Positions 4,370 through 48,863 of a DNA stretch of 64,000 bases are shown piece by piece. Position numbers and translations under genes: made by a program. This DNA comes from an uncultured Haloferula sp. (GTDB taxonomy: Bacteria > Verrucomicrobiota > Verrucomicrobiia > Verrucomicrobiales > Akkermansiaceae): assembly GCA_965652295.1 (NCBI GenBank), contig CBFGTS010000005.1, positions 192,001 through 256,000 on the forward strand, written 5' to 3'. Each line of letters begins with the position of its first letter. Positions within the stretch are counted from its first letter, which is position 1. The notes under the pieces are model-generated. The model searched no databases. It saw nothing but the letters and a program-made list of their open reading frames with translations, and was not told the DNA's origin.

Positions 4370-4385
4370 AGTTAACCGGTCAAGG
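4370..4385. promoter_or_regulatory. Candidate operator, copy 1 (agttaaccggtcaagg)
   Basis: Matches the motif seen at 28773, 39492, 44232 and 48848; lies ~160 bp upstream of the glycosidase run. Confidence 0.55.
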
Positions 4386-4546
4386 TGCTCCGCCGATATT
4401 TCGGGTGGGCCGGGTCGTATCTCTGCCATGAATTTCGTCGTTCCGTTCCCGATTGCGCACTGTCGCTGAATCGAATGCCTTCGAAAATCGTCTCCAACTC
4501 TTCGCTGCCCGCCATGGCTCCAAGCCGGAAACTCAATGCACGCACC

Positions 4547-6148
4547 ATGAAATCGCTCCACTTCAGTTTTTTTCTCGCCGCTGGCATCGCCCTCGTTTCT
4601 CCAGCCAAAGCCGAGCCATTCACCTGGGGCGATTGGCCGGAGTGGGGGGATCAGAAGGACGGCACCTACCGCAACCCCGTCCTGCCCGGTGACTACAGCG
4701 ACCTCGATTGCATCCGCGTCGGCTCCGACTACTACGCCATCTCATCCACTTTTCAGTATTCGCCCGGCATGATCGTGTTGCGATCGAAGGATCTCGTGAA
4801 CTGGCGGATCATCGGCCACGTGGTCTCCGACGTCACCCAGATCGGCCCCGACATGAACTGGGACCGCATGAACCGCTACGGCCGCGGCATCTGGGCCGGT
4901 GCCATCCGCCATCACGACGGCAAGTTCTGGGTCTATTTCGGCACGCCCGAGGAAGGTTACTTCATGAGTTCCACCAAGGATCCGGTCGGCCCCTGGGAGC
5001 CCCTCCACCGTATGACCCAACAGGGCGGCTGGGACGATTGCTGCCCGTTCTGGGACGACGACGGCCAGGGCTACTTCGTCGGCACCCACTTCAAGGGCGG
5101 TTACAAAACCTGGCTCTACAAGCTCACCCCCGACGGAAAGGACCTCATCCACGACTCGCGCGTGCTCATCAATGAGGGTTCCCGCCGCGAGGCCAACAAG
5201 CTCTTCAAAGTAGGCGACACCTACTACCACTTCTATAGCGAGGTCGGAAACGGCGGGCGCTACGTGATGATGCAGCGCTCGAAAAACATCACCGGCCCCT
5301 ACACCGAAAAGCGCCAACTCAGCCACGTGCAGCTTGAGTTCCACGAACCGAACCAAGGCGGCATCGTCCAGACCGAGAAGGGCGACTGGTATTTCCTGAC
5401 CCACCACGGCAACGGCGACTGGCAAGGACGCTCCTCCAGCCTCCTGCCCGTCACCTGGGTGGACGGCTGGCCGGTGCTCGGCAAGGTCGGCGACGACGGC
5501 ATCGGCACGATGGTCTGGAGCGGCAAAAAACCAGTCCAGGGCGGTCCCCTGCTCGTCCCCCAAAGCGACGACGATTTCTCCGGCCCCCGGCTCGGCGTGC
5601 AGTGGGAATGGAACTACCAGCCGCGTGCCGAAAAATGGTCATTCACCGAGCGCTCCGGCTGGTTGCGCTTGCATGCTTGGAAACCACTCCGGCACGACGA
5701 CCTCAAGACCGCCGGAAACACGCTCACGCAGCGCGTCATGCGCACCAAGCGCAACGTCGTCACCGTCCAGCTCGACCCGTCCGGCATGGCCGATGGCCAG
5801 GTCGCCGGCCTCAGCCATTACCATCGAAACTACGGCACCATCGCCGTGCGCCGGGAAAACGGCAAACTGGCCATCGAGTCCGCGCGAAACCAAACGATCC
5901 AGCCCGGCCCGGAAATCAGCGCAAAACCCCTCTGGCTGCGCTCCGAGTGGGGCTTGGACGGTCTCTGCCGTTTCTCCTACAGCACCAATGGCGAAACCTT
6001 CACGACGTTCGGCGAACCCTACCAATTCGGTTGGACGGACTACCGCGGCGAACGCATCGGCCTGTTTTCCTACAACAATACCGGCGAGGCCGGTTACGCC
6101 GACTTCGACGCCTTCACTTATCGCTACGATTCACCCCTGACCCGCTAA
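4547..6148 (+). CDS. GH43 beta-xylosidase/arabinofuranosidase with C-terminal beta-sandwich domain
   Basis: Signal peptide MKSLHFSFFLAAGIALVSPAKA. Motifs NPVLPGDYSDLD, WAGAIRHHDG, WDDCCPFWDDDG; SDDF...LGVQWEWN opens the C-terminal domain. Start moved from the ORF-track 4385 to ATG 4547. Confidence 0.88.
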   Translation: MKSLHFSFFLAAGIALVSPAKAEPFTWGDWPEWGDQKDGTYRNPVLPGDYSDLDCIRVGSDYYAISSTFQYSPGMIVLRSKDLVNWRIIGHVVSDVTQIGPDMNWDRMNRYGRGIWAGAIRHHDGKFWVYFGTPEEGYFMSSTKDPVGPWEPLHRMTQQGGWDDCCPFWDDDGQGYFVGTHFKGGYKTWLYKLTPDGKDLIHDSRVLINEGSRREANKLFKVGDTYYHFYSEVGNGGRYVMMQRSKNITGPYTEKRQLSHVQLEFHEPNQGGIVQTEKGDWYFLTHHGNGDWQGRSSSLLPVTWVDGWPVLGKVGDDGIGTMVWSGKKPVQGGPLLVPQSDDDFSGPRLGVQWEWNYQPRAEKWSFTERSGWLRLHAWKPLRHDDLKTAGNTLTQRVMRTKRNVVTVQLDPSGMADGQVAGLSHYHRNYGTIAVRRENGKLAIESARNQTIQPGPEISAKPLWLRSEWGLDGLCRFSYSTNGETFTTFGEPYQFGWTDYRGERIGLFSYNNTGEAGYADFDAFTYRYDSPLTR

Positions 6149-6152
6149 AGCC

Positions 6153-7538
6153 ATGTCCCCGCGCATTTCCCTTCTTTTCTCCGCCGGCCTGCTGGTCACC
6201 TGCAGTCCAGCCCTCGCCAAGGAGACGCAACATCCCTTCGGCCGCTCCCTCATCCCCGATCTGATGGCCGACCCCAGCATCATTGAGGAAGACGGCGTCT
6301 TCTACTGCTACGCCACCACCGACGGCTGGGGCAAACACCTCTCCACCTCCGGCACGCCGGTCGTCTGGAAGTCCCGCGACTTCGTCAACTGGAGCTTCGA
6401 AGGCTCGATCTACCCCGACAACTTCGACGCCAAATACTGGGCTCCCAGCGCTCCGTTCAAACACGACGACCGCTACTACCTCTTCCCGACCCTTGACGGA
6501 CAAATCACCGCCACCGTGTCCGACAAGCTCACCGGCCCGTTCAAGACTCTGGATGGCAAGGACATCTACCCCGATTCGGGCTGGAAGCCGTTTCCCATTC
6601 ACCAGATGTCCTCGATCGATGCGGAAATTTTCCGCGACGACGACGGCACCGCCTATATGTACTACTCGCGCCGTAGGGCCGTGAAGCTCAAGCCCGACCT
6701 CTCCGCTCCCGACGGCCCGGTCATCACCTTTGACACGGGCGAAGGCAACTACTCCGAAGGCCCCTGGATCTTCAAACGCAAGGGCATCTACTACTACCTC
6801 TACACCCTCGGCGGCGGCGAAAACTATTCCTACGCCTACCTCATGAGCCGCGAATCGCCGATCGGTCCCTGGACCATTCCGGCTGACAAAATCATTTCGC
6901 AAACCGATCCCTCGGTCGGCATCTACGGTCCGGGCCACGGCTGTTTCTTGAACCCGGAGGGTACCGACGACTGGTATTTCATCCACCTCGAATTCGGACG
7001 CAGCAGCACCAACCGCCAGATTTTCGCCCAGAAGATGGAGTTCAACGCCGACGGCACGATCAAGCCGATCAAGCTGACCAACCAAGGCGTCGGCGCGCTT
7101 CGCAAGGTCTCCGGGCGCCGCCCTAATCTCGCGCTCAAAGGCACCGCCACCGCGTCCTCCATCCGCCCGGATTGGCACATCCGCATGACGGCCCCCACGC
7201 CCGCGCGCATCGAGCCCTTCACCCCGGATCTCGTGATCGACGAATCCAATGGCAGCCGCTGGATGCCCGCCGCCGGTGACAAGTCGCCCTGGTGGCAGAT
7301 CGACCTCGGCGAGGCCCGCGACATCATCGGCACCGAAGCGTATTTCGTGAAACCCGCCGCCGGCCACGCTTACAAGCTGGAGTCGTCCCTCGACGGCAAA
7401 ATCTGGTCGCCCTACGGCGGACACCAGGACGTGCAGCTGCGCTCTCCGCACGTGGACCAAAAGCCCGCCCGCGCCCGCTACCTGCGGCTCACGATCCTTC
7501 AAGGAGAGCCCGGCCTCTGGGAATTCCGCGTTTATTGA
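6153..7538 (+). CDS. GH43 glycosidase with C-terminal F5/8 type C (discoidin/CBM32-like) domain
   Basis: Signal peptide; ADPSI, WAPS, IDAEIF, YSEGPW and GPGHG motifs; C-terminal WWQIDLG...ARYLRL. Confidence 0.87.
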   Translation: MSPRISLLFSAGLLVTCSPALAKETQHPFGRSLIPDLMADPSIIEEDGVFYCYATTDGWGKHLSTSGTPVVWKSRDFVNWSFEGSIYPDNFDAKYWAPSAPFKHDDRYYLFPTLDGQITATVSDKLTGPFKTLDGKDIYPDSGWKPFPIHQMSSIDAEIFRDDDGTAYMYYSRRRAVKLKPDLSAPDGPVITFDTGEGNYSEGPWIFKRKGIYYYLYTLGGGENYSYAYLMSRESPIGPWTIPADKIISQTDPSVGIYGPGHGCFLNPEGTDDWYFIHLEFGRSSTNRQIFAQKMEFNADGTIKPIKLTNQGVGALRKVSGRRPNLALKGTATASSIRPDWHIRMTAPTPARIEPFTPDLVIDESNGSRWMPAAGDKSPWWQIDLGEARDIIGTEAYFVKPAAGHAYKLESSLDGKIWSPYGGHQDVQLRSPHVDQKPARARYLRLTILQGEPGLWEFRVY

Positions 7539-7567
7539 ACCTCTGCCACCCCGCCCGAGTCATCGTC

Positions 7568-8956: not shown

Positions 8957-8993
8957 GCGTCTCAGCCGCACTCACGCTAAACCCTTCCCAGCC

Positions 8994-15864: not shown

Positions 15865-15955
15865 TAGCGCGTCAGCCCCTACAATGCGCCGCCCCCGATG
15901 GCGCATATCAGTTCAAAATGAGCACCATCATCTGGAACATCCCTGGATCTCCTCA

Positions 15956-28772: not shown

Positions 28773-28788
28773 ACTTAACCGGACAAGT
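28773..28788. promoter_or_regulatory. Candidate operator, copy 2 (acttaaccggacaagt)
   Basis: ACTT-N8-AAGT pseudo-palindrome upstream of 29033. Confidence 0.65.
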
Positions 28789-29032
28789 GACTTGAGTCTT
28801 GGATCTTCGGCTTTCCGGTTTCAATTGACATTCTCATCCAACGTTTTTTCCAGGTCATCCGATCACCTTGCCAAGACGCCGGCTTGCCCGGTCCACCCGA
28901 GGAGCGGACGCCCCACAACCCAAGCAATCATGGCCTACCAGGCCCACTTTGCCGTCACCCGCTTCGCGGCGAACTGGCTTCGTTCACCGGTGAGAGCCGG
29001 CCTTCAAACCCACGCTTGAAAACCCATCTTCG

Positions 29033-35000: not shown

Positions 35001-35215
35001 TGACCCAGATGCAAGCCAGCGGAAACGACATCCAGCTTGGCTTCCCGACCGTGAACGGGAAGACCTACCGCTTGGAGCGGTCCGGCACCTTGCTGAACGG
35101 CTCATGGACGCCCGTTCAGGAAAACATCCTGGGCTCCGGCGCGGAGATCCAGGTCACCGACACTGGCGGAGCCAATCAAGCCAGGAGATTCTACCGCATC
35201 GTCGTCGTGCCCTGA
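29033..35215 (+). CDS. Secreted 2060-aa modular protein: alginate-lyase-like toroid, beta-sandwich, Fn3 repeats, F5/8C, ricin/CBM13, three LamG domains, C-terminal DxDGDG domain
   Basis: Signal peptide ending AGA-FTHPCIP; GETGRDIGH; QxW ricin repeats; three WQRIFDFG LamG modules; C-terminal DPDGDG...RRFYRIVVVP. Confidence 0.85.
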   Translation: MMSSLIRFAIAAFILGTMVLPAGAFTHPCIPNTLEELDTIKANLDKQPWKSGYAALAADGRSQLTYIMGGPYEVVKRNPNENLWPWRGDMIAVYNLSRMWYFTGNEAYAQKARDILVAWATHHKTFGGNESGLDLGDYAICYGGGASILRGTWPGWTQQDTLTVQNYFRNVLWPATAAPYKISGPANKGSLNVVAGAVMAVFCDDTEMFNHVVDTFRNYPGAGLPNILATGQMGETGRDIGHGFNDLYARTLTAEILWKQGVDVFSELDNRLLAAGEYHARNTSMWDTPFVPYGTVDYHYYQNAAWMVSQNRGAYYLLQNAYRNRFGLPTPWIDRKIQEASVDGGNFMFAKTADFSTATPPAPDPRPEVSPASSGLTLTTLGGQTAGRSASYSNGVWTVTGLGSGAWTDGADDGQFVYKEMTGDCAMVAQVTSVTWSGSQNGKMGLMVRDNLVGTVSQRSWTAIVPTESNGNLIEAHSRGWTVTWGGKNWAARAQGLPLPLPYWLKMERKGNVITSYASQDGTSWSPTISSDFGNLPPSVYVGFFVSSGNSTPNTATFENVAFTGGTGGLVTTPAAPAAMLASGSNKAITLRWLPSFGATSYDLLRSTTSGSGYTVIASDLGTDKTSYVDTNVASGTTYYYVVRAKNSAGTSGNSPEFYAARLPVPLINLAFSGTASDSNNSAATNTASAFDQNFGSFWFHGGTTGWLRYDFGVNSAQIIKRYTVVSAPLIPERDPKDWQFQGSNDGTTWTTLDTQTNQTFEFRAYQRFFDIGNSTAYRYYRLNVTANNGDATFLHLSELGLWGDSGRTVPDGDYRIASRNTNKVMDVTGVTDGAAVVQQTFDADDSQQWALAWQGNGWYRATNVAATKALDNSGSSSPGGNLVIQPSSGATSQLWKLTPDGDGFYRIESENSGLVAGVSGGSTADGANIVQETSNGSNSQQWLPGLAVEPQPIPPTPTGLQGSAVSISQIDLSWTASPGAISYRIKRSAVSGGPYTTIAASANGTSYSDSDLNSSTTYYYVMSALNGSGESVDSAEIGVTTLTGPPEAPTGLSAILGTNQVTLSWMATSGTTSYGVKRATTSGGPYTTIATGLTGTTYTDTGITHDASYFYVVVATNGDGTSPDSAEVAVAPGTLGVHLEFDETGGTIAADSSGRGQHATLLNGANFAPGILDNGLNLPATSAQHATLPSGIVSGLTDFTVATWIKVNAFVTWQRIFDFGTGTNNNMFLSAQGPAGAGRPRFSIRTPEVGEQAFDSSIALTAGAWTHLAVTRSGNTVQLYIDGTLAGSGTVTLSPSGLGFTTQNYLGKSQFNDPYFNGALDDFRLYTQAMSAAEITALAQPPAGAPRQLTIDPGNTQATLTWAPNGTTTYTVKRSTTSGGPYTTIATGLTGTTYTDTGLTNDTTYYYLVTGANGGGSGPDSVELSVTPGTLGLHLKFDEVNGTVAADSSSNANDATLVNGPIFGTGRINNALTFSAASSQHATLPSGIASGLNDFTISTWIRADSFATWQRIFDFGSATNHYMFLSAQGPAGTGRPRFAIRTSSVAEQFIDSSIALTTGTWTHLAVTRSGDTVSLYVNGALAGSDTTTLGPADLGTTTLNYLGKSQFNDPYLNAALDDFRIYSRAFSASEITALAQSGPPPPDNLVAEPATNAVHLSWSPAAGATSYNILRATTSGGPYTPIADGITTLTYTDSDFPDDGAYYYIVRSVNVSGIQSINSSEVAATPVTLHLHLKFDESSGSTVADSSGHGMDGTTVNAPSWTAGRIGNALSLNGTTQYVTVPSGIASEVSDFTIATWVYWNGGGNWQRIFDFGSGTTSYMFLTPKNGANGRLRFAITTGGGAGEQQIDGDATLPADGWHHVAVTLSDSTGTLYVDGLQVGQNTGMTLHPSDLGATTQNRLGRSQYNDPYFNGRLDDFRLYGNALSASDVLALASAALTPLESWRLIHFGTTSGTGDAADSADPDGDGWTNSQEFISGTDPNDRTSLLKVTQMQASGNDIQLGFPTVNGKTYRLERSGTLLNGSWTPVQENILGSGAEIQVTDTGGANQARRFYRIVVVP

Positions 35216-35254
35216 GATCGAAACCATCTCCATCCGCCGAAGATATTCATCTCC

Positions 35255-38200
35255 ATGTCCATCTCGTCCTTGCGCGCCACTTCCGCCTTCATCCGCCGAT
35301 TCTCGCATCTTTCGTCCGTCGCCCTCTCCACCTGGTTTGCCTGTGGCTCGCTGCACGCGGTTCCTTCAGATCCCTGGACGCGCGGAACTGGGTTTCATGG
35401 AAACATCACTTTGGGTGCGCTGAAAGACTCGTCCGTGGTCAATCGCCAATGGGTGAATGATGATCCGATTCCAGATGTCGTGAATTACGATTTCAACCTG
35501 AATGGCTGGCCTTACGACGTTTACGTCCCACCAAGCTATGACGGGACCAAGCCCTACGGAGTGATGGTTTACATCACCTCGGATCAAAACACGGGCGGCG
35601 TGGTGCTTCAGGGCGTTTCCAACGAACGGGACATCATCTGGATCGCGCCGCGGAATGTCGGAACAACGCGTATTCGCCGGATCGTTACGGTGCCGGGCTC
35701 TTTGCGATCTACCGCGCCAAGGAAATGTTCAACATCGATCCCCGGCGTGTTTACAACTCGGGGAAATCCGGCGGTGCCCGCACGGCCAGCGCACTGGCGT
35801 TTTATCATTCGGAGGTTTTCCGCGGCACCGCCCCTTCGGCGGGCTTCGCGATGCCTCGACTCGACGAGGTCACACCGGACTACATCCCCAACACCAGCGG
35901 TCAGTCCGACACCTATTTCAATTATTCGGACGGTCCGTTTTTCTACTACTACCTCACCAACCATTCCCTCCACGACTCCATCTACACCACCGCCAAGGCG
36001 AACAAGCTGCGCTCCTATATCCTCGGACGCTACGGCGACTACCGTGAGGATTACTTCGTCGAAGCCTTCCACTGTGCCTACGAGCCGCAGGGCTTGGACT
36101 GTTTCCTCTACAACGGCCCCGGCGGCCACTCGGATCCCAATGACGCCGAGATGATCGAGGCCATCGATTATCTCGACCGCGACGACACGTTTCCCGTCAA
36201 CGCCAACATCAACGCTGGCGCGGGCGGTTTCTCCGGGATCACCAACATCAGCCAGGCGGGTGCGTCGGCGGTGGAAGCGACGTCCGGCGGCGACACGACG
36301 TACACCCTCACGCCCGCTCTCAACTCGGTGGCGGCGGCGAAATCCGGTTCGAACTTTTACTGGGACAACGCCAACGGTTCGACCGTGCGCTGGCTGTGGG
36401 AGGTGAAAAACGCGAGCCCCACGAACCAGAAAACCTGTTTCGGTTTGTGGGCGGGCGACGAGACATGGGGTGGGGGAGTTCCGGTTTCCATCAGCGCCGG
36501 CAACAAACCCGGTATCCTCATCACCATCACCCAAAACGGCTCGCAAAACCGTATGATCATCAGCGCGCGTTCCGATGCGGGCGGCGAAACGATTTTCTAC
36601 GACGGTTTCTTCAACTTCGTCCCGGCCTATGCGACCGCATGGACGAGCACCCGGACCGGCTACCTCACCGGCACCGGGTCGCCGGTGGAGATCCGCATGG
36701 ACCTCAACGACCGGCGCTGGCAGCTCACGTTCAACGGCATCGTCTTGAACGGTGCGACGAACGCCATCGCCAGCGGCACCGAGATCACCCGCGACAACCG
36801 GCGTGCGATCTATGGCTACTGGAACTCCGCCATCGGAGGCGGAAGTTTCTGGGAACACGATCCGTTCACGTCCTGGAACAACACTTGGTCGCCCTTCACC
36901 AAATCGATCTTCACCGCCACCGCCGGAGCGCTTTCCGGCACGGGCGCGACACCTTCGCCGATGGAGTTGCGGTATGTGATCGCCAGCGATCCGGGCCTGC
37001 CCGACCCGCTTCCCCCCGGCCCCACCGGCATTGACGCTTCGGCGGCCTATGGCACGCTGAGTCTGACTTGGGATGCCCTCTCCGGCGCGACCGGTTACAC
37101 CATCAAGCGCGCCACCATCTCCGGCGGCCCCTACATCACCCTCGCGAGCAACGTCACCGCCACCACCTACACCGACGCCACCGCCCAGTCCGGCGTCCTT
37201 TACTACTACACCGTTTCTGCCGACACCACCTCGGGCGCCACCGCCAACGGCACCGAATCCGCCGCCGGCCTGAACCCCCTCCGCCTCCGTAGCACCGGCG
37301 GCACCGCCAGCAGCGGCACCAACACCACTGGCGCGGAAGGCGCGGACAAGGCCTTCGACGGCACCCTCGCCAAATGGTTCAACGGCACCGGCGCTACCGA
37401 TTGGCTGCAATACCGCTTCCCCTCCGGCAAACGGTTTCCGCTCAGCCGATACATCCTCTCCTCCGGCAACGACGTCCCCGGACGCGACCCCGTGAACTGG
37501 CAAATCCTCGGCAGCAACGACGGCCTCAACTGGGACACCCTCGACACCCGCACCGGTCAGGCCTTCCCCGCCCGCCTGCAAACTTACAACTACGACGTCC
37601 CCCTGACCGCCGCCTACGAATACTACCGCCTCAACATCACCACCAACGGCGGAGCCACTGGCATTCAGCTCACCGAGTTGCAACTCCTCTCACCCGACAT
37701 GGTCGCCCCCGTCATCGCCACCCCGGCCGACCTCCTCGTCGGCACCATCGACGGCAGCGGTGCCACCGTGACCTTCGCCCCGACTGCCACCGACGACGAA
37801 GACGGCCCCGTCACCGTCCTCTGCACGCCGCCCTCGGGCGGCGTCTTCCCCATCGGCTCGACCACCGTCACCTGCACCGCCAGCGACACGAGCGGCAACC
37901 ACACCCAATCCACGTTCACCGTCACCGTGAACGACGACACCCTCAACGACCTCTCGCCGCCCGCCATCACCGTTCCCGCCGACATCACCGTGCACGCGAC
38001 CAGCCCCGCCGGTGCCACCGTCACCTTCACGACCTCCGCCCTCGACGTGATCGACGGCGCGCGCGCCACCGCCAGCTCCCCCGCCTCCGGCTCCCTATTC
38101 CCCGTCGGCACCACCGTCGTCACCACCACCGCCTCCGACACCAAGGGCAATGCCGGCTCGCGCACCTTCACCGTCACCGTCCAGCCCTACATCCAGACCC

Positions 38201-39444
38201 GCGCCTGGCTGAAATTCGACGAAGCCAGCGGCTTGGCGGCGGACGACGCCACCGGCAACAACTGGACCGGCACGCTCGTCGGCGGCCCCACCTGGGCCAC
38301 CGGCAGGCTCAACAACGCCGTCAGCCTCAGCGGCTCCACGCAATACGTCACCCTGCCCACGGGCGTCGTCAACGGCCTCGCCACCTGCACCATCAGCGCC
38401 TGGGTCAACCTCGGTGCCACCAGCAACTGGCAACGCATCTTCGACTTCGGTACCGGCACCAACAACTACATGTTCCTCTCCCCGCAAAACGGTGCCAACA
38501 GCAAGATCCGCTTCGCCATCCGCACCGCCTCCGTCGCCGAACAGATCATCGACGGCGCCGCCACCCTGCCCACCGGCAGCTGGCAACACGTCGCCGTCGT
38601 CCTCAACGGCGCCACCGGCACCCTCTACGTGAACGGCGTCCAGGTCGGCCAAAACACCGCCATGACGCTCAATCCCTCCAGCCTCGGCGCGACCACCAAC
38701 AACTACCTCGGCAAATCGCAGTTCAACGACCCCTACCTCAACGGTGCCGTGGACGACTTCCAGATCATCGCCCAGGCCCTCACCGGCCAGCAAGTGGCCG
38801 CCTTGGCCGCTCCGCCCGCCGCCCCGACCTCGCTCACTGCCAACATCGGCGACACTCAGGTTTCCTTGGGCTGGGCCTCCGTCGCCGGAGCCGTCAGCTA
38901 CAACGTCAAACGCGCGCCCGTCAGCGGTGGACCTTATGCCTTCGTCGCCAACACCTCGGCCACCAGCCATACCGACACCGGTCTGACCAACGGCACGACC
39001 TACCACTACGTCGTCACCGCGCTCAACGCAGCGACGGAGAGCCTGAACAGCGTCGAAGTCAGCGCCACGCCCTTGACCGCTCTCCAGCAATGGCGTCAAA
39101 CGAACTTCGGCACCACCTCGGGCACCGGCGATGCGGCCGACAACGCCGATCCGGACGGCGATGGCATGACGAACGCCGAGGAGTTCACCGCCGGCACCGA
39201 TCCTCGGGACGCGGGCAGCATGTTCCGCGTGAGTGACGCGACGGTGGATGGCTCCGATGTCCTGCTGAGTTTCCCGACGGTGACAGGGAAAACCTATCGC
39301 CTCGAACGCTCCGACGACCTGTTGAACGGCTCATGGGCTCCGGTGCAGGACAACATCCCGGGCACCGGCGGCACCGTCCAGATCCCCGTCGCCCTCGACT
39401 CCCTTCACATCCGACGCTTCTATCGCATCGCTGTCGTTCCGTGA
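35255..39444 (+). pseudogene. Frameshifted (or mis-sequenced) secreted esterase-like modular protein: alpha/beta hydrolase, Fn3, F5/8C, two HYR, LamG, Fn3, C-terminal DxDGDG domain
   Basis: ORF 35255 (signal peptide, YVPPSYDG...) joins the frame of ORF 35725 if one base is added at 35660-35663, giving PRNVG-NNAYSPDRYGAG...IDPRRVYNSGKSGG (GxSxG). FPIGSTTVTCTA and FPVGTTVVT are HYR-type motifs. Confidence 0.8.
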
Positions 39445-39491
39445 ACGTCCCTCGCATCCGCTTCAGGCCAGTCATGCCGAGAAAGTCGGCC

Positions 39492-39507
39492 ACTTAATCG
39501 CGCAAGT
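39492..39507. promoter_or_regulatory. Candidate operator, copy 3 (acttaatcgcgcaagt)
   Basis: ACTT-N8-AAGT, ~160 bp upstream of the PEP-CTERM gene. Confidence 0.62.
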
Positions 39508-39666
39508 TACGAGGCCATTGCGCTCCTGAAGCGAATGGACGAAACACTTCCGGTCAGGCGTCTCCACGAGCAGCCCCCCCATTTTGTTCTGCACGCAAGG
39601 TGCTCATGATCATCGTGCGAACAAAAGAAAAGGACCTCGGTTCGAATGCCCCATCCAAGAAACACC

Positions 39667-40551
39667 ATGAAAACCAAAGCACTGCGTATCCGTTCGGCGG
39701 CCCAGCCCATTCTGGCCGCCATCGCATTGGGTTCCGCTGCTCACGCCGCGACGACCCTTGAAAACTATTTCGACTTCACCAGTTACGGCAGCGTGGCAGG
39801 AGGAGGCACCGTCACCGCTATCGGCAACACCGGTTCCACCGCCACCGTCAAATCGGCCGCCACATCCCTGACCAGCTCGGGTCTCGCGATCACCGCTGGC
39901 ACCAACGCAAGCAGCACCGGCGTCAACCTCACGGGCTCCGATCTCAGCGGGTTCACGAGCGACTTCACGCTGCAGATGTGGTTCACGAGCCCGTCCACGG
40001 TTGCGGGCAATACAGCACTCTTCGGCGGCACGACTTCTGCGACGATCGACGGCAGCATGGTGGGGGATCAGGCACTTTTTGCCGCCTACAGTAACACCAA
40101 TCCGCGGTTTCTGCGCCAGATCATGAGCAGCAACTCGACATTCGGAATCGCTGGTGCGCCCCCGTCCGGAACGGCGGCCACGGCCAGCACGCCCTATGAT
40201 TACATGCTCATCTATACCGCCAGCACGAATACCGTCCAAGCCTACTTGGACGGAGTGGCTGTCGGTGCCGGGCTTAGCACGGCCTACTTCCAAGGACTCG
40301 ACTCCCTCACGAACGGCTTCGCTATTGGCGGGGTGCAAAGCCCCGCATTCGGCGACAACGCTGCCGCGATCAACGTCACCTCGTTCATGATGTACTCCGG
40401 TGCCCTGACGTCGGACGAAATCAACGACATCCACGCGTTTGGCTCTACTCCGAGCTTGAACCAACTGGGTTCCGTCGTGGTGGTTCCGGAGCCGACCGCA
40501 GCTCTACTGGGCGGCCTCGGCTTCCTCGGCCTGCTTCGCCGCCGTCGCTGA
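39667..40551 (+). CDS. PEP-CTERM sorting-domain protein with a concanavalin/LamG-like body
   Basis: Signal peptide ending AAHA; C-terminal VPEPTAALLGGLGFLGLLRRRR; FTLQMWF and YSGALTSDEI motifs. Confidence 0.9.
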   Translation: MKTKALRIRSAAQPILAAIALGSAAHAATTLENYFDFTSYGSVAGGGTVTAIGNTGSTATVKSAATSLTSSGLAITAGTNASSTGVNLTGSDLSGFTSDFTLQMWFTSPSTVAGNTALFGGTTSATIDGSMVGDQALFAAYSNTNPRFLRQIMSSNSTFGIAGAPPSGTAATASTPYDYMLIYTASTNTVQAYLDGVAVGAGLSTAYFQGLDSLTNGFAIGGVQSPAFGDNAAAINVTSFMMYSGALTSDEINDIHAFGSTPSLNQLGSVVVVPEPTAALLGGLGFLGLLRRRR

Positions 40552-40580
40552 TCACGCAGCTTCGAAATCCTGCACTTCTC

Positions 40581-40617
40581 CGCCGCCTCCGATTCTGATC
40601 GGTGGCGGCGTCTTTTT
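40581..40617 (+). terminator. Intrinsic terminator
   Basis: Stem cgccgcctccgat / atcggtggcggcg (one mismatch) followed by tcttttt. Confidence 0.75.
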
Positions 40618-41145
40618 GTCTCCGTGCCGGACAACGGCCCGATCTACTATGGCTGCATGAAACCGGAAATCGGAGGAGGGACGCCCTCGTCCCTCAACCC
40701 CGGCAGCCGCTTTCCTTCAGGCTCCTGCTCAGGTGCGCCGCACGCCGATGCAAACAAAGCGCCCCGTCAGTTTTGCATACCCTCGAAACCCGAAGACCCC
40801 GGAGAAGGGAAGAATGCCGACTGACTCGAATGGCGCGGTTCTCAGAGTCAGTTCGAGAGCGCCGTGTCGAAGGTCGGGAGATCGGAAGGTCCGCATCACC
40901 AGCGATCCCGACTTGCCGTCACGGCGTGAACCAAGGAACTTTCGACCTTTGACCTTGCGACTTCCGGACTGCACTTTCCACACCGTCCGTTTCCGAGATC
41001 ACGTTTAAGTCAGCCCGGTTCCCGACTGACTCCCTGAATCGGGGGAGATCCATTTCCCGCAGGAACGACATCGACGCTTCCTCGACCGCCATGTCTGTTT
41101 GGCAGTTTGCGGTCCATGTCCGCGGAAACCCAAGCCCCATCCTGC

Positions 41146-44058
41146 ATGCGTTTACTCCGGTGTTTTGCCGCCCTGATCCTTGTCTCCGGTTCAACACGCG
41201 CTGCCGACTATGTTTGGAAAAACGCCGTCATTGGTGGCGGCGGCTATGTCACCGGCATCGAGTACCATCCGTCCGAACCCGGCCTCGCTTACGGCCGCAC
41301 CGACGTCGGCGGAGTCTATCGACGGGACTCGGCCACGCGCCCGTGGGTTCCGCTCAACGACTGGGTCGGCGGCCTGGACAACGGATTCATGGATCTGGGT
41401 GTGCTGAGCGTTGGCCTCGATCCCACGGATCCCGACCGGGTCTATCTCGCCTGCGGCCAATATCTGGAATGGTGGGCACCGCCGGCGCGTTTCATGAGTT
41501 CGTCCGATCGCGGCGCGACGTGGACCGACATCGCGCTGCCCTTCAAGCTCGGTGGCAACATGAACGGTCGCGGGACCGGCGAGCGGCTGGCAGTGGACCC
41601 AAACGATGGCGCGCGGATCTTCCTCGGCACCACGGCGGACGGGCTGTGGCGCAGCACGGACCGCGGGGCGACGTGGGCTCGTCTAACAGAATTCACTCCC
41701 GCGGCGACCACCTTCGTCCTGTGCGATCCGGATCACGCGGGCACGCTGTATGCCGGTGCGGCACAGACCGATGGCCCGACCTTGTGGAAATCCACGGACG
41801 GCGGCGAAACGTGGGACGCGGTGGCGGGACAGCCGTCCGGGCTGATCGCCTTGCAGGCGAAGCTTGATGCGGCGGGCGATCTCTTCATCACCTTCTCCGA
41901 TCATGTGGGACCGAACAGCGCGGCTGCCGGATCCGCGTGGAAATACTCCGCCGCCGGGACGTGGACGGATCTCAATGTCCCGGGCGGCCAAGGCGGCTTT
42001 GGCGGGATCGCCGTGGACCCGAACCTGCCGGGACGCCTTGTGGTTTCCACCCTCAACCGCTGGTGGCCGGGCGACGAGATCTATCGCTCCGACGACGGCG
42101 GCGAGACCTGGACCGGCGTGCTCGATGGTGCGTCTCTGGATCATTCCTCCGCGCCGTGGGCGGCCACGCTGTCGCCACACTGGATCAGCGACGTGGAGAT
42201 CGACCCCTTCGATTCGGGACGCGCGTCGTTCATCACCGGCTACGGGATCTTTTCGACCTCCAATCTCGGCGCGACTCCGGGAATGCCGATGTGGTCCTTC
42301 GACAGCAGGGGACTGGAAGAATGCGTGCCGCAGGCGCTGGTCAGCCCGGCTGAAGGCCCGCCGCTGGTCAGCGTGATCGGCGATTTCGACGGCTTCCGCC
42401 ATGACAACCTCGATGCCTCGCCCGCGCTCGGCCGCCACTCGCCGAGCAAGGGAACCACGCATGCGCTGGACGGCGCGGGTACGGTGCCTGCCGTACTTGC
42501 GAAGATGCATGGAGCCACCGGAGCGATCTCGCGCGACGGCGGCGCGACCTGGACGGATTTCCCCACAGCGCCGGCCACGGCGTCCTCAGAGCGTGGCGAA
42601 CTCGCGGTATCGGCTGACGGCTCAAGGATACTGTGGTGTCCCAAGGCCTCCGCGGCCTATGTTTCCACCGACGACGGGGCGACATGGACGCCCTGCGCCG
42701 GCAGCCCCACGGGCGATCTGTGGCCGGCGGCGGACCGGGTGAATCCGCTGCGTTTCGCGGTTCTCGATCCGGAGACCCGTGTGGTGCATGTGAGTACGGA
42801 TGGCGGCGCGACCTTTTCCGCGGGCGACAACGCTCTGCCGGGGGGCAGTGACCGGATCGAGGCGGTGCCGGGTCAGGCCGGTCACTTGTGGCTCACGGCG
42901 TGGGGTGGGGGGCTTTGGCGTTCCACGGATGGGGGCGCGGATCTCGTCCAAGTGACCTCGGTCGAACGCGGCTACCGCGTTGGTTTCGGGCGTTCGGCGG
43001 ATGGCACGGGATACCCCGCGATTTTCCTGTGGGGACGCGTCGGTGGGATCGACGGGCTGTTCCGCAGCGATGATACCGGCGCGACCTGGCAGCGGATCAA
43101 TGACAGCCTCCATCAGTTCGGCCACATCACCGACCTGACCGGCGACCCGCGGGTGCATGGCCGCGTCTATCTGGGGACCAGCGGACGCGGCGTGATCGTC
43201 GGCGAGGAAACGACGGAGCCGCGGTTCACGGAGATGATTTATCAGGACGGGCTCGCGGAGGGCTGGCAGAACTGGAGCTGGGCCACAGTGAACATGCCCT
43301 CGGCGGTTCCGGTGCGGCGCGGATCGTCCGCGGTATCGGTCACGGCAGGCGGTTGGGCCGCCCTCTATCTGCGGCGGCTGGCGTTTCAGAATACCTCCGG
43401 GTATGCGGCGCTGGCTTTCTGGATTCATGGGGGCGCGACCGGCGGCCAGACGCTGCAAGTCATCGGCCTGCGCGACGGTGTCACCCAAGCGCCGAGGGCG
43501 ATCCCCGCGCCGGCCGCCGATATCTGGACACGCGTGGTGATCCCGCTGTCGGAGTTGGGCCTGTCGGGGGCATACGATTTCAACGGTGTGTGGATCCAGA
43601 ACGTCAGCGGCTCGGCGATTTCCACCTTTCACGTGGACGACATCGCGCTGGTCGGCGAAGCGGATGCGGATGACTGGGCGGCGGTCGATTGGGAGAGCTG
43701 GCGGCAGTCGGAATTCTCCTCGGCCGCGCTGGCAGACGCCGGCATCAGCGGCCCCGATGCGGACCCCGACCGCGACGGACGTGGGAACCGTGCCGAATGG
43801 TATTTGCTGGGCAGCGCCTCGGAGAACGACGGCCCGTGGTGCACGTGGCAGCTTCAAGACGACACGGCGGTGCTGAGTTATGATCGCCGCGCGGGCTTTC
43901 CATCGGCCCTGACGTTTGAGATCTCGACGGATCTCAACTCCTGGTCCCCGGCGGGCGGGGAACCACAACTGCTCCCGCTCGATGCCTCAGGGCTGCGGGA
44001 ACGGGCATCCTGGACCTTCCCCAGCACCATGCCGACGCTGTACGTCCGGCTCCGCTGA
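41146..44058 (+). CDS. GH74 xyloglucanase/endoglucanase with a CBM-like domain and C-terminal DPDRDG domain
   Basis: GGGYVTG, RTDVGG, GERLAVDP and GDFDGFRH motifs; BNR repeats (SxDxGxTW); DGLAEGWQNWSW module; ends LYVRLR. Start could also be 41116. Confidence 0.9.
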   Translation: MRLLRCFAALILVSGSTRAADYVWKNAVIGGGGYVTGIEYHPSEPGLAYGRTDVGGVYRRDSATRPWVPLNDWVGGLDNGFMDLGVLSVGLDPTDPDRVYLACGQYLEWWAPPARFMSSSDRGATWTDIALPFKLGGNMNGRGTGERLAVDPNDGARIFLGTTADGLWRSTDRGATWARLTEFTPAATTFVLCDPDHAGTLYAGAAQTDGPTLWKSTDGGETWDAVAGQPSGLIALQAKLDAAGDLFITFSDHVGPNSAAAGSAWKYSAAGTWTDLNVPGGQGGFGGIAVDPNLPGRLVVSTLNRWWPGDEIYRSDDGGETWTGVLDGASLDHSSAPWAATLSPHWISDVEIDPFDSGRASFITGYGIFSTSNLGATPGMPMWSFDSRGLEECVPQALVSPAEGPPLVSVIGDFDGFRHDNLDASPALGRHSPSKGTTHALDGAGTVPAVLAKMHGATGAISRDGGATWTDFPTAPATASSERGELAVSADGSRILWCPKASAAYVSTDDGATWTPCAGSPTGDLWPAADRVNPLRFAVLDPETRVVHVSTDGGATFSAGDNALPGGSDRIEAVPGQAGHLWLTAWGGGLWRSTDGGADLVQVTSVERGYRVGFGRSADGTGYPAIFLWGRVGGIDGLFRSDDTGATWQRINDSLHQFGHITDLTGDPRVHGRVYLGTSGRGVIVGEETTEPRFTEMIYQDGLAEGWQNWSWATVNMPSAVPVRRGSSAVSVTAGGWAALYLRRLAFQNTSGYAALAFWIHGGATGGQTLQVIGLRDGVTQAPRAIPAPAADIWTRVVIPLSELGLSGAYDFNGVWIQNVSGSAISTFHVDDIALVGEADADDWAAVDWESWRQSEFSSAALADAGISGPDADPDRDGRGNRAEWYLLGSASENDGPWCTWQLQDDTAVLSYDRRAGFPSALTFEISTDLNSWSPAGGEPQLLPLDASGLRERASWTFPSTMPTLYVRLR

Positions 44059-44231
44059 GTTCCAGCAGGTCGCGGGCAACCGCACGCAGGCGAGCCGACC
44101 CCGCCTCTCGTTCGACGGCGGGATTGGCAAGGATGACTGAGACATTCACGGCTCCGCCATCAGGAAATGCTGTGGGTTTCGTGCCCTCCATGACTCCGCT
44201 GCCGGTCAGCTGCAACCCCTTCGCTTTCGTG

Positions 44232-44247
44232 ACTTAACCGAGCAAGT
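44232..44247. promoter_or_regulatory. Candidate operator, copy 4 (acttaaccgagcaagt)
   Basis: ACTT-N8-AAGT, ~110 bp upstream of 44356. Confidence 0.65.
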
Positions 44248-44355
44248 GTCCCAACCCTTGTCCTCCCTAGGCTCTTGGAGAGTAGGCTTCACAATTGGAC
44301 CCAACCCACGATCCGCGCGGATCATCGGTCCGAAAACCCGCTTGTCACAAACCCA

Positions 44356-45174
44356 ATGAAGAAGCCCAACCTGGCCTTTCGCTCCGCGATCGACCGGCTG
44401 CCCTTGTCCCGATCCACATGGATGCTGGCGGCAGTCGGCGGACTTTGCACAGTGGCCGTCCTCGCCTTCGTTCAAACCAAAGGATCACCAGCATCCCACC
44501 CGGCGAAGCCAGCAGCGCCCCCCCTTTCTCGTATCGAGGAACCTTCCACCCAGCGATCTCCCGGACAGGGACAGCAAACCGACGATCCGGCCCAAGCGCT
44601 GGCCCAGGCATTCTCACTTCAAGAAAGAAGCGAACGCGAGAGCCGCATCCGGGAATTGCTCTCCATGTGGGCCATTCGGGACGCAAAGGCGGCGCTGAAC
44701 TGGGTTTCCTCGCTGGAGGATCCCGCTGCCCGACTTTCCGCCCGCTCCACCGTCTGCCTGGCTCTCGCGGAAAAGGATCCATGCCAGGCCATCGTGCTCG
44801 CGCTCGCCCATGGCGCGGACGAGGACGATCACGGAGGATTGCTCGAATATCTGACGATGCAGTGGTGCGGGAAAGAGCCCGAGGCCGCTCTCGATTGGGC
44901 GTGCGAGCAGCCGCCCGGCGAATGGCGGGACCGCCTGCTCGCGAGCGCCTCGTTCATGCTCTCCAAGTCCGACCCCGCCGCGGCGGCCCATCTTGTCTCG
45001 GATCTCGAACCGGGAACCGTGCAGGACGAAGCGGTCATGGCCGTGCTCCACCAATGGGCGCTCCAGGATTCCTCCGCCGCACTCCAGTGGGCGGAAGCCT
45101 TCTCCGAATCTCCCCTCCGCGATCGAGCGCTCGCGGAGATCTCGAATCTCCGAAGCTACCTCCAATCTCCATGA
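44356..45174 (+). CDS. Membrane-anchored alpha-helical repeat hypothetical protein
   Basis: N-terminal TM segment (WMLAAVGGLCTVAVLAFV); repeats such as WAIRDAKAALNW, WCGKEPEAALDW, WALQDSSAALQW. Confidence 0.75.
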   Translation: MKKPNLAFRSAIDRLPLSRSTWMLAAVGGLCTVAVLAFVQTKGSPASHPAKPAAPPLSRIEEPSTQRSPGQGQQTDDPAQALAQAFSLQERSERESRIRELLSMWAIRDAKAALNWVSSLEDPAARLSARSTVCLALAEKDPCQAIVLALAHGADEDDHGGLLEYLTMQWCGKEPEAALDWACEQPPGEWRDRLLASASFMLSKSDPAAAAHLVSDLEPGTVQDEAVMAVLHQWALQDSSAALQWAEAFSESPLRDRALAEISNLRSYLQSP

Positions 45175-45233
45175 ACGACGGGAGTCGTAGTACTTCCGCC
45201 CATCCGACAACAAAAACAACCCACAAAAACACC

Positions 45234-48200
45234 ATGCGCAAACCCATCATCCACTGGCTGAAAACCCTGGCGCTGCTATGCGTCCTCGGCGTTTCCCAGC
45301 TGCACGCCTACACCCATCCCTGCATTCCGACCACCGTCGAGGAGCTGGACACCATCAAGGCCAACCTCGACAAGGAGCCTTGGAAGTCCGGCTATGCCAT
45401 CCTCTCAAACGCCAGCACGGCCCAGCTCACCTATGCCCCGAACGGCCCGTGGGCGGAAGTGGGCCGCACCCCTGACGTCAACCTCACCTATTGGAAGAAT
45501 GACATGGTCGCCGTGTATGATCTGGCGCGCATGTGGTATTTCACTGGCAACAACGCCTATGCGCAGAAAGCCCGCGACCTCCTCATCGCTTGGGCGACCA
45601 CGCATACGGCTTTCACCGGGCAGGAAATCCCGCTTTCGATCGGCGACTTCGCCCAGGCGTACGCCGGTGGCGCCAGCATCCTGCGCGGCACCTGGCCCGG
45701 ATGGACGGAGGCCGACACCACCACGGTCAAAAACTACTTCCTGAACGTTTACTGGCCCAGGAGCCTCTGCAACGGCTACATCACCGGCCCCGCCAACAAA
45801 GGTTATATCTATCAGGCCGCCGGCATCGCCATCGCCGCTTTTTGTGACGACGTGGAAAAATTCAACCACGTCATCGACATTTACCGTGCCAACCCGCCTG
45901 CCGGCCTGATGAACACGCTGGCAACGGGCGAAATGGGTGAAACGGGCCGCGACGCCGGCCACCTCTACGGCGGCCTCATCAGCGCCGCCTTCCTCTCCGA
46001 AGTGGCATGGAAACAAGGCATCGACCTCTACTCCGAATCGGACAACCGGCTCCTCGCCTGCGCCGAATACTACGCCCGCAACACCCTCGAATTGGACAAT
46101 CCTTTCGTCCCCTTCGGCACCATCGATTGGCTCTATTATGCCAATGCGGCCGGACCATACACCGCCAATCGCGGCGCGCTTTACCTCATCCAAAACGCCT
46201 ATAAGAACCGCAAAAACCTCCCAACACCGTGGATCGACCGGAAGCTCGAAGAACAGGGCATCGATGGCGGCAACTTCATGTATGCCAAGGCGGCGGATTT
46301 CAGCACCGCCACTCCACTGGCGACCGCTGTTCGCCCGGCGGTTTCCCTGGCATCGAGCGGCCTGACCCTGACCACCCTCGGCACCCAGACCGCCGGACGC
46401 AGTGCCGCCTACTCCAATGGCGTGTGGACCGTGACCGGCCTCGGAAGCAACGTCTGGGCGGATACGGCCGATGACTGCCAGTTTGTTTATAAAACCATGA
46501 CCGGCGATTGCGCCATGGTCGCCCAAGTCACCTCGTCCCAATACACAAGCGGGCAAGCCAAGGCCGGATTGATGATCCGCGACACACTTACCAACACCTT
46601 TTCGAAGCGCGCCTGGATCGGGATCAAACCGGACCCCTCCGACATCCGGATCGAATCCCACTTTCGTGGCTGGACCGATGTCTGGGGCGGAAGCAACCGG
46701 GATGATATTTCGCGCAGCCATCCTCCCGGCATGCCCTACTGGCTCAAGATCGAACGCCGGGGCGACATGTTCAACACTTACACCTCGCTGGACGGCACCA
46801 GTTGGGCCGCCGCGCTCAGCTGCTACTACGCCAACCTCCCTTCCATGCTCCATATCGGACTGTTCGTGACCAGCGGCTCGACCGCGACCAGCACCGCCAC
46901 CTTCGCCAACGTCGCCTTCACCGGAGGAACCGGCGGCCTCGTGACGACTCCCGCCGCCCCGGCGACACTGTTCGCCACTGGCTCCAGCAAAGCCGTTAGC
47001 GTGCGCTGGCTGCCGTCCTTCGGCGCCACCGCCTACGACCTGCTCAGGTCCACCACCTCCGGCAGTGGCTACACAACCATCGCCAGCAATCTAACTCCTG
47101 ACAAAACCAGCTACACGGACACGGCTGTAAGCGCTGGCACCACCTACTACTATGTGGCCCGCGCGAAAAACTCCGCCGGCACCAGTGGCAATTCACCGCA
47201 GTTCTACGCCACGCTGCTTCCCGCGCCTCTGGTCAACCTCGCCTTTGGCGGCACGGCCACCGACAGCGGCAACTCGGTCCCATGGAATTCCGCGAACGGC
47301 TTCGACCAGAACCCCGGCTCCCTCTGGTTTCACGGAGGAACGACCGGCTGGCTACAATATGACTTCGGCGCGGGCAACGCGCAGGTGGTCAAGCGCTACA
47401 CCGTCACCGCCGGCAACGTGAACATCCCCGCGCGCGACCCGAAGAACTGGCAGTTCCAAGGCTCCAATGACGGCACCAACTGGACCACTCTCGACACGCA
47501 GAGCAACCAGGCCTTCACCATTAGGATGCAGCAGAAGACGTATAACCTCGGCAATACCACCGCCTACCGTTACTACCGGTTCAACGTCACCGCCAACAAC
47601 GGCGACAGCACCTTCACGCACCTCGGCGACATCGGTCTGTGGAACGCCACCGGCCGCACCGTCCCCGACGGCCGCTACGCCCTTGTCAGCCGCAAGAGCA
47701 ACAAGGTCATGGGCACCACCGGCGGCGGCACTGCCAATGGCACCGCGCTCGACCAGTGGAGCTACTCCGGTTCCGACAGCCAAAAGTGGGACCTCACCCA
47801 CCTCGGCAGCGGGCAATATCAAATCACCGGTGTCGCCAGCGGCCGGGTGATGGATGTGGCGGGCATCAGCACTGCCAACGGCGCGCAGATCCACCTCTGG
47901 GACTGGCTGAACGGCAACAACCAGAAATGGACGGTTACTCCGGCTGGCGACGAGAGATTCAAGCTCACCGCCGTCCATAGCGGCAAGGTGGCCGACGTCA
48001 CCGCCGGCAGCACCGCCAACGGCGCCAAGATCATCCAGTGGTCCTACCTCGGAGCCGACAACCAGCAGTGGATCCTCGCTCCGTTCTCAACGACGGCGAC
48101 CCTCCGTCTGCAATCGCACAACTTCCCGACCCGCTACATCCGCCATTCCAGCTATCGCGCCCGGATCGACGAGAATGTTTCTCCCGTTGGGGACTCCCAA

Positions 48201-48509
48201 TTCCGGGTCAGGATCGGCCTGACAAACGCCGCCGGGGTGTCGTTCGAATCCGCGAACTACGCCGGCTACTACCTGCGGGTGCGTACGAACGGAGAAGTGT
48301 GGGTGGACAAAAACGACAACACCGCCGCCTTCCGCGACAGTGCCACCTTCGAGCGGGTGCCCGGATTGGCCGATTCGAGCAAATCCTCATTCCGCATGTG
48401 GACCGACTCAACCCGCTACCTCCGCCACTACGCTTACCTGATGGTCGCGCAAAGCGGATCCGGATCGGCCTTCAACGCCGACGCCACCTTTGCGGAAATC
48501 CAACCATAA
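45234..48509 (+). CDS. Secreted alginate-lyase-like modular protein: toroid, beta-sandwich, Fn3, F5/8C, ricin/CBM13, AbfB/CBM42
   Basis: Signal peptide MRKPIIHW...LHA-YTHPCIP; GETGRDAGH; QKW/QQW ricin repeats; C-terminal LQSHNFPTRYIRH...DATF. Start moved from the ORF-track 44295. Confidence 0.86.
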   Translation: MRKPIIHWLKTLALLCVLGVSQLHAYTHPCIPTTVEELDTIKANLDKEPWKSGYAILSNASTAQLTYAPNGPWAEVGRTPDVNLTYWKNDMVAVYDLARMWYFTGNNAYAQKARDLLIAWATTHTAFTGQEIPLSIGDFAQAYAGGASILRGTWPGWTEADTTTVKNYFLNVYWPRSLCNGYITGPANKGYIYQAAGIAIAAFCDDVEKFNHVIDIYRANPPAGLMNTLATGEMGETGRDAGHLYGGLISAAFLSEVAWKQGIDLYSESDNRLLACAEYYARNTLELDNPFVPFGTIDWLYYANAAGPYTANRGALYLIQNAYKNRKNLPTPWIDRKLEEQGIDGGNFMYAKAADFSTATPLATAVRPAVSLASSGLTLTTLGTQTAGRSAAYSNGVWTVTGLGSNVWADTADDCQFVYKTMTGDCAMVAQVTSSQYTSGQAKAGLMIRDTLTNTFSKRAWIGIKPDPSDIRIESHFRGWTDVWGGSNRDDISRSHPPGMPYWLKIERRGDMFNTYTSLDGTSWAAALSCYYANLPSMLHIGLFVTSGSTATSTATFANVAFTGGTGGLVTTPAAPATLFATGSSKAVSVRWLPSFGATAYDLLRSTTSGSGYTTIASNLTPDKTSYTDTAVSAGTTYYYVARAKNSAGTSGNSPQFYATLLPAPLVNLAFGGTATDSGNSVPWNSANGFDQNPGSLWFHGGTTGWLQYDFGAGNAQVVKRYTVTAGNVNIPARDPKNWQFQGSNDGTNWTTLDTQSNQAFTIRMQQKTYNLGNTTAYRYYRFNVTANNGDSTFTHLGDIGLWNATGRTVPDGRYALVSRKSNKVMGTTGGGTANGTALDQWSYSGSDSQKWDLTHLGSGQYQITGVASGRVMDVAGISTANGAQIHLWDWLNGNNQKWTVTPAGDERFKLTAVHSGKVADVTAGSTANGAKIIQWSYLGADNQQWILAPFSTTATLRLQSHNFPTRYIRHSSYRARIDENVSPVGDSQFRVRIGLTNAAGVSFESANYAGYYLRVRTNGEVWVDKNDNTAAFRDSATFERVPGLADSSKSSFRMWTDSTRYLRHYAYLMVAQSGSGSAFNADATFAEIQP

Positions 48510-48541
48510 ATCACGGAAACCGCAGGGACTTGCGACACCCG

Positions 48542-48577
48542 CGCCGCCGCCAACTTCACTGGCGGCGGCGTTTTTTT
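48542..48577 (+). terminator. Intrinsic terminator
   Basis: Perfect 11-bp stem cgccgccgcca / tggcggcggcg followed by T7. Confidence 0.85.
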
Positions 48578-48594
48578 ATCCTGGATACAATAAT

Positions 48595-48782
48595 GGAACC
48601 GACGACGAACACAACCGAGCGCAGCGAGATGGACGAACACTTCGATTCAAAAACTGAGTCAAGTTCACACAAATATCAAAAGGGTTGAGCCGGTTTGCCG
48701 ATTCACCTTCAGGGTTACCCTCAAACTCTGCCCAAAGCTCTTAAAATCAGCGTTCATCTGCGTCCATCCGCGGTTCATTTCT
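48595..48782. repeat. Degenerate MITE/REP-like element with 10-bp-periodic arm, copy 1
   Basis: Right arm atcagcgttc-atctgcgtcc-atccgcggttcattt (48746-48780) is close to the reverse complement of 56573-56607; shares ctcttaaaatcag with copy 2. Confidence 0.6.
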
Positions 48783-48847
48783 TTTCCCAGGTTTTTGCGG
48801 CCCGGAGTGGGACAAAAGCCCGGTCGTCCACGTTCCATCCTGCCGCC

Positions 48848-48863
48848 ACTTAACCGGAAAAGC
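48848..48863. promoter_or_regulatory. Candidate operator, copy 5 (acttaaccggaaaagc)
   Basis: Matches the motif; ~95 bp upstream of 48957. Confidence 0.6.

Follow-up and report, generated by a model that had tools for sequence, protein, structure and literature searches.

The stretch of DNA analysed here (the window, 64,000 nucleotides (nt), 63% G+C) covers positions 192001-256000 of contig C5 in the source genome G000, an uncultured Haloferula species. It carries a plus-strand glycan cluster in which Pfam finds a PATR-repeat protein, glycoside hydrolase (GH) families, four lyase-like proteins and a BNR protein. A sequence-only reading of the window had pointed to a 16-base-pair (bp) pseudo-palindrome recurring between these genes and had ascribed it to one LacI-type regulator of the whole locus. 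Here, we follow this motif through related genomes, suggest that it marks a real regulon with a likely identified regulator, and weigh how this regulator may act.

The five 16-mers of that reading were all recovered on the plus strand and, by our gene calls, all of them are intergenic. The first operator copy (4370..4385) heads a run of 13 genes (4547-28658) and is followed by a poor -35-like hexamer. The second (28773..28788, with TTGGAT at 28799) heads a lyase-like multidomain gene (29033-35215) and a frameshifted gene (about 35255-39444), and the third (39492..39507, with TTGCGC at 39518) the gene of a LamG protein with a VPEP-type C-terminal tail (39646/39667-40551). The fourth (44232..44247) is followed by TTGTCC at 44258 and by TAGGCT 19 nt further; its unit comprises a gene of no known family (44356-45174) and a lyase-like gene with ricin-type lectin and AbfB modules (45234-48509). 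The fifth (48848..48863, with TTGCCC at 48874) heads a gene remnant (48957-49313) and a further lyase-like gene (49503-56560). A matrix built from these five sites finds two further copies on contig C5, both outside the window. One is located at C5:191758-191773, 242 bp before the window start and 111 bp before the PATR-repeat gene (1..4230, starting just left of the window at about C5:191884), and has a held-out score of 24.9. The other (C5:273820-273835, minus strand) lies between a LacI-family gene and a divergent gene of 1.1 thousand codons, which is followed by a GH35 gene. Among the seven the copy at 4370 is the weakest.

Some details of the first description had to be adjusted. Distances to the next ATG, given there as 95-245 bp, are 93-244 bp, with 89 or 161 bp at 4370 depending on the choice of start codon. 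The (C/A)TTG that was said to follow after exactly 9 nt is present behind four of the five sites, while 4370 has GATA. A reversed half-match at 41002-41010, put forward as a further element before the GH74 gene, does exist; its full 16-mer has a matrix score of 0.0, where the seven sites reach 18.6-26.4, and is oriented away from GH74, which rules it out as an operator. A matrix scan of the 594-bp gap before GH74 finds nothing scoring above 0.

The recurrence clearly exceeds chance. Within the window the pattern ASTTAAYCGNNMAAG with at most one mismatch matches these five sites and nothing else; shuffled sequence averages 0.17 matches and none of 100 shuffles reaches five, a figure that is flattering since the pattern was derived from these very sites. 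Leave-one-out matrices were run over the genome (4.37 Mb, i.e. 8.74 million positions over both strands); the non-training positions scoring as high as the held-out site, this site included, number one for 28773, two each for 44232 and 48848, three for 39492 and eight for 4370. A matrix trained on 23 distinct sites, these seven included, places the seven copies at ranks 1-7 of the genome (scores 18.6-26.4, next 17.3). Several units contain paralogs, so that, besides plain coincidence, the sites might be left over from promoter DNA that was duplicated among the paralogous lyase-like genes. The flanks of the seven sites are on average 26% identical, the sites precede unrelated genes, and a copy accompanies the regulator in 15 of 15 loci (see below); the probability of either explanation is negligible.

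The consensus of 28 distinct sites is RCTTAANC followed directly by GNACAAGY. Its central CG (positions 8-9) occurs in all 28, a count to be read with the fact that the sites were found by a matrix favouring CG; even length together with a central CG is what characterizes a LacI-type operator. The outer bases CTT and AAG are inverted repeats (left C in 21 of the 28, first T in 28, second T in 27; right AAG in 28). The inner positions are unlike, with AA on the left (26 and 28 of the sites) and, on the right, G in 25 and T in 20. Thus the right half read inward is RCTTGTNC opposite RCTTAANC on the left, and the asymmetric bases lie four and three positions from the centre, AA being promoter-distal and G,T promoter-proximal. 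All seven copies in G000 share one orientation relative to their target. A symmetric operator of the type TTAACCGGTTAA, as originally proposed, is not what is conserved, because the halves differ systematically.

Ravcheev et al. (2014, PMC4052901) describe local LacI/GalR sugar regulons whose motifs are palindromic, with inverted repeats that are strongly conserved; both the protein family and the site type are already known. Common to those regulons and the present one are the 16-bp site, the central CG, a distance of no more than about 250 bp to the start codon, (here putative) autoregulation and the linkage of the regulator to sugar-catabolic targets; unlike them, the halves here differ at two positions and the site has a fixed direction. 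The string "Verrucomicrob" does not occur in the main text of that paper.

The candidate regulator is the LacI-family gene beside the outermost copy (C5:273856-274935, plus strand, 359 amino acids), which starts 18 kb past the window end and only 20 bp after the end of the operator. Pfam recognizes its LacI helix-turn-helix (HTH) domain (PF00356, 47.6 bits with a cut-off of 27, E 1.4e-12) and a divergent effector domain of the Peripla_BP_3 type (PF13377, 29.8 bits with a cut-off of 26.5, E 7.6e-7). Its closest relatives stand in records titled Luteolibacter, Verrucomicrobiaceae or Verrucomicrobiales. According to PMC2978694, the hinge-helix residues Ala-51 and Leu-54 read the central CG, and an arginine at helix position 20 pairs with G at operator position 6. 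Both CG-reading residues are present in the candidate, whose hinge aligns with that of CcpA, and the hinge residue Leu74 is invariant in 28 sequences. Helix residue 20 is leucine in all close orthologs and not the arginine of the dominant TVSR subgroup; all 28 distinct sites have T as operator base 6. The pairing of protein and site is supported by this, because leucine and T replace together what in the family is arginine with G.

Relatives of the regulator were fetched, as loci labelled L, from genomes (labelled G) and metagenomes; the metagenome loci were scanned for target sites within flanks of up to 10 kb. In all 15 loci with orthologs of 76-88% identity (three of them identical, hence 13 distinct), an autoregulatory-type copy, detected with the five-site matrix, lies on the same strand at -36 to -38 of the start codon; the partial loci L141, L142 and L150, without N-terminus, were left out of site counts. 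Among 29 loci with homologs of 40-51% identity a site (-33 to -51) is present in three, and these represent the sister clade. In a quick tree of 73 proteins, one clade (SH-aLRT 92) has the site in all 16 members that could be scored, as opposed to 3 of 56 proteins outside it. A close ortholog (88%) is encoded in only one of the 34 other genomes of the genus, G037, and only this genome among 200 others of the family has two pattern matches on one contig. These two stand before the units orthologous to those of 44232 and 48848; the 48848 16-mer and its hexamer are identical in G037, and five other loci have kept the 44232 site ahead of the orthologous gene. Seen from this gene (44356), an operator precedes it in six of six loci examined. 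In at least six loci (L100, L102, L130, L133, L139, L140) the regulator ortholog is a neighbour of window-gene orthologs, the order in L100 and L130 being regulator, site, 44356 ortholog and 45234 homolog. In L102, L131, L139 and L140 a GH35 gene is located beside, or one gene from, a lyase-like gene; the stretch of G000 from about 56.6 to 75.7 kb (window numbering) was therefore probably inserted later, splitting the regulator off from its cluster. Nine loci with homologs of the lyase-like gene in other genomes have no site within flanks of about 1.5 kb, which is uninformative.

The assignment to a LacI-family operator can therefore be upheld and a specific regulator be named: judged from these genomic associations, the protein encoded at C5:273856 very probably pairs with the 16-bp sites. 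Other LacI-type genes of G000 are not supported as binders. The fragment at 58486..59061 (minus strand) has no DNA-binding head and is 31% identical to the candidate; its relationship is rather with a protein in G119 (58%) that has no site. The recognition helices of the four other LacI-HTH genes differ, and for the two of them checked with the matrix no strong site was found (8.6 or less). A separate observation concerns a second motif class, approximately TACACTGGTA, upstream of other LacI paralogs (L047, L054, L073, L074, L076-L080), the helix of which mostly begins with VSH; in five loci TTGAC follows this motif after 2 nt. In L161 (G518:C38), a locus fetched because the site is present there, two back-to-back copies of the main motif, 4 bp apart, have a gene on one side and, on the other, a tandem pair of LacI paralogs that belong to a separate clade.

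An AraC-family gene (C5:190.6-191.5 kb) adjoins the window on its left, with about 250 bp between its end and the C5:191758 site. Activators of the AraC type have oriented sites close to -35, and thus another protein such as this one might bind the motif, with the LacI gene as a mere target. The complete genome G037 (100%) has sites and no AraC match at E<=1e-40. Conversely, G206 (90% complete) encodes the closest AraC homolog (59%) and has neither a LacI match at E<=1e-30 nor a motif match, and G007, G057, G076 and G143 have homologs of 42-46% and no pattern match. As gene and motif separate in both directions, while the site tracks the LacI clade and keeps its central CG invariant, an AraC-type binder is not supported and appears quite improbable.

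What follows the operator was examined with a two-box sigma-70 score over 12 promoter groups and 71 offsets, using three promoter models (one fitted to the genome and two generic ones). All three peak at offset +11, and 0 of 300 random sets reach this score at any offset. Promoter-model scoring thus predicts that the TTG is a -35 element, as had been supposed. A -35-like hexamer of the form T-x-G starts 11 bases after the site; in 33 site records T is found at +11 in 30 and G at +13 in 25, and C at +10 in six. Groups new to the first reading, namely C5:191758, both L161 sites and the distant clade, also score at +11, and distant relatives show clear -10 boxes (TACACT, TAAACT) starting at +33. 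Genome-wide, 2137 upstream regions contain an excess of TTG followed by TA at 19-21 nt (157, 202 and 142 against 64-108 at other spacings), which is the ordinary sigma-70 pattern, with TTGC as the commoner form. The TTG as a third operator half-site (CAAG-N10-CTTG) is not favoured, its C being kept in 6 of the 33 records.

The same TTG could in principle be the -12 box of a sigma-54 promoter (TGGC-N7-TTGC) with its -24 box abutting the operator. The genome does encode one rpoN and three strong matches to sigma-54 activators, and in three orthologs the 44232 promoter matches TGGC-N7-TTGC exactly. In sigma-54 promoters GG is expected at -24; it is present in 4 of the 33 records and in none of the seven G000 sites, and it varies among orthologs of one promoter. 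In addition, TGGC-N7-TTGC occurs 20 times in the 2137 upstream regions against 4-13 at other spacings. On account of the -24 counts a sigma-54 reading of the TTG is rejected, being even less probable than an AraC-type binder.

Taken together, comparison of sequences suggests, with a probability of roughly 0.6, that the motif is the operator of the C5:273856 protein, which would activate the sigma-70 promoters of the cluster and repress its own. The dimer would use its hinge helices to bind across the central CG, the hexamer behind the site would be the -35 element, and the -10 box would start 33-37 bases after the site. Because of this last distance, and assuming the usual -12 start of the -10 box, the operator centre would come to lie near -52 to -56, upstream of RNA polymerase and clear of the core promoter. 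We infer from this position an activator-type placement that fits activation better than classical repression. The single orientation may set the geometry for contact with the polymerase, the C-terminal domain of its alpha subunit being a guess at the partner. In this way one LacI dimer per promoter could activate the glycan units and damp its own gene.

On the opposite strand of the regulator-adjacent copy the arrangement is different. Here the site covers the regulator's own -35-like TTGTGC. At 19 nt from the TTG within the operator (16 nt after TTGTGC), 12 of 14 loci have TA and two have CA, and in all 14 the start codon comes 12-14 nt after the first base of this pair. The conserved T at this promoter is at the seventh, not the sixth, position and does not fit the expected box. 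The regulator mRNA may be leaderless and autorepressed, since its start codon lies 12-14 nt past a -10-like TA and the operator over a -35-like box.

The main rival is classical repression by the same protein at the same sites, i.e. a repressor released by a sugar, covering either the UP region or a -35 box located inside the operator (TTAACC). That the operator covers a -35-like box at the regulator's own promoter agrees with it, and the register with the -35 box inside the operator (offset -13) is second-best in all three models. The -10 consensus of sigma-70 promoters has A at the second position, whereas the -13 register puts a TTGCCC-like sequence without this A there, and it stays below +11 in every model. 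Simple blocking needs no fixed orientation either, yet seven of seven sites share one. Repression is the usual mode of the LacI family (PMC2329647); on balance, we regard this alternative as less likely than activation.

Precedents for activation by LacI-family proteins exist. As described in PMC3463425 and PMC2329647, activation by CcpA proceeds as a rule from sites upstream of -35, e.g. at ackA, pta and ilvB in Bacillus subtilis, and the activating positions in Lactococcus lactis are -21/-31. As with CcpA, the operator found here lies just upstream of -35, its centre being 18-19 bp before the first T and about 21 bp before the middle of the hexamer, where the reference point used for L. lactis may differ. 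In contrast with the present local regulator with one upstream position and orientation, CcpA is global, needs HPr-Ser-P and mostly represses. Another LacI-family activator, FruR/Cra, activates E. coli ppsA from an operator at -45.5, while in the fru system of Vibrio cholerae the FruR operator lies between -35 and -10 in a long spacer (PMC7897506). The V. cholerae system also shares the divergent regulator gene and the long-spacer promoter with the locus described here, where the operator is predicted to lie wholly upstream of -35 (near -52 to -56) and not in the spacer.

Several results weigh against activation from this register by this protein. Four of the 12 promoter groups were chosen knowing the TTG, and kin are not independent. 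Taken alone, the -10 box is weak, with no peak at +33/34 in the genome-fitted model and a modest one in the generic model. At the 44232 promoter, the best conserved among the targets, a TANNNT-like box is found 18-20 nt from the hexamer (six orthologous sequences) against a genome optimum of 16-18. The hexamer at +11 of 4370, the copy that heads the largest operon, scores poorly (-5.9 to -0.2), and the group beside the regulator reaches intermediate values there (0.0 to 2.5). A stock promoter scan of 39300-49600 reports none of these promoters at its threshold. When a matrix of 13 regulator-adjacent sites from other genomes is used, 44232 comes only 17th and 4370 is not among the top 30. A separate clade (L092, L161) uses a similar motif, so that specificity is not absolute. 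Finally, the claim that one regulator serves the whole locus has to be both widened and narrowed: it is supported for seven units, a larger regulon than had been claimed, but no operator precedes GH74 itself, and G037 lacks the site before its 29033 ortholog, which is placed there after the 27012 ortholog. As this case demonstrates, promoter structure varies.

Searches of an open library, at the level of listings and the beginnings of abstracts, showed no description of LacI operators in Verrucomicrobia. The present operator is paired with a specific candidate regulator for a large glycan locus in this phylum. Several proteins of no known family, as well as the four lyase-like proteins, are thereby assigned to a single unit that is probably inducible, and the range of substrates to be considered for them becomes smaller. 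The content of GH74, GH31, GH3, GH29, GH35, GH43, GH51 and GH97 enzymes suggests that the effector is a sugar derived from xyloglucan or arabinan. If activation is true, all of a local LacI regulon would be switched on by its regulator from a polar operator, unlike the textbook picture of the family. More tentatively, and with our doubts slightly outweighing our confidence, this LacI branch of Verrucomicrobia may consist of dedicated sugar-induced activators, which have lost the recognition arginine and act from polar half-sites at one fixed phase before weak sigma-70 promoters. Such activators would fill the role of the hybrid two-component systems and extracytoplasmic function (ECF) sigma factors by which glycan loci of Bacteroidota are regulated, and with the help of their operators glycan regulons might be mapped throughout the phylum.

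The 13-gene run (4547-28658) encodes five GH43-like proteins (two of them below the Pfam cut-off), GH51, GH3, GH31, GH29, two GH97, a lyase-like protein and one protein of no known family; GH51 stands for an arabinofuranosidase and GH29 for a fucosidase. The BNR protein (41146..44058, plus strand) is a GH74 xyloglucanase-like enzyme, and its PDB relatives are mostly named xyloglucanases (E down to 1e-197). The genes starting at 19670, 29033, 45234 and 49503 encode four related proteins with a weak domain of the alginate-lyase family (PF05426, E 7e-9 to 1e-13) and lectin, AbfB or LamG modules. They are candidates for new polysaccharide lyases or hydrolases, and the catalytic region of the 45234 protein has no sequence relative in PDB. 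Two conserved proteins (27012-28658 and 44356-45174) match no Pfam or NCBIfam family at E<=0.001, and the former has no PDB match.

Some genes of the cluster are apparently damaged. The region 35234-39444 is one gene in G037 and is split in G000 by a frameshift near 35662, close to which there is a weak match to esterases of the polyhydroxybutyrate (PHB)-depolymerase type. The remnant at 48957-49313 shares about its first 70 residues (81% identity) with the start of a lyase-like gene of G037 (at least 1860 amino acids), the rest being missing. Between the end of the 45234 gene at 48509 and the 48848 site, a consensus scan detects an intrinsic-terminator-like hairpin with a T run (48541..48581, plus strand), which is weak taken alone, as 10 such hairpins were found in the region against 8.3 expected.

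Around the cluster further genes were noted. To the left (L001:13622-19509) a DUF5107/TPR gene and a sodium:solute symporter gene are divergent from an AraC gene, with no copy of the motif in between, and probably form a separate sugar-uptake unit. To the right, the MocR-type gene at 57072 has no intergenic site nearby. At 58486-59545 the headless LacI-type gene on the minus strand stands back to back with a headless fragment of an AAA_14/DUF4143 ATPase on the plus strand, and this pair suggests a deletion junction near 59030-59060. Just beyond the window (G000:C5:256680-261364) follows a four-gene Qat-like anti-phage operon, the best NCBIfam matches of which are QatA, QatB, QatC and QatD, with QatC alone passing its curated cut-off.

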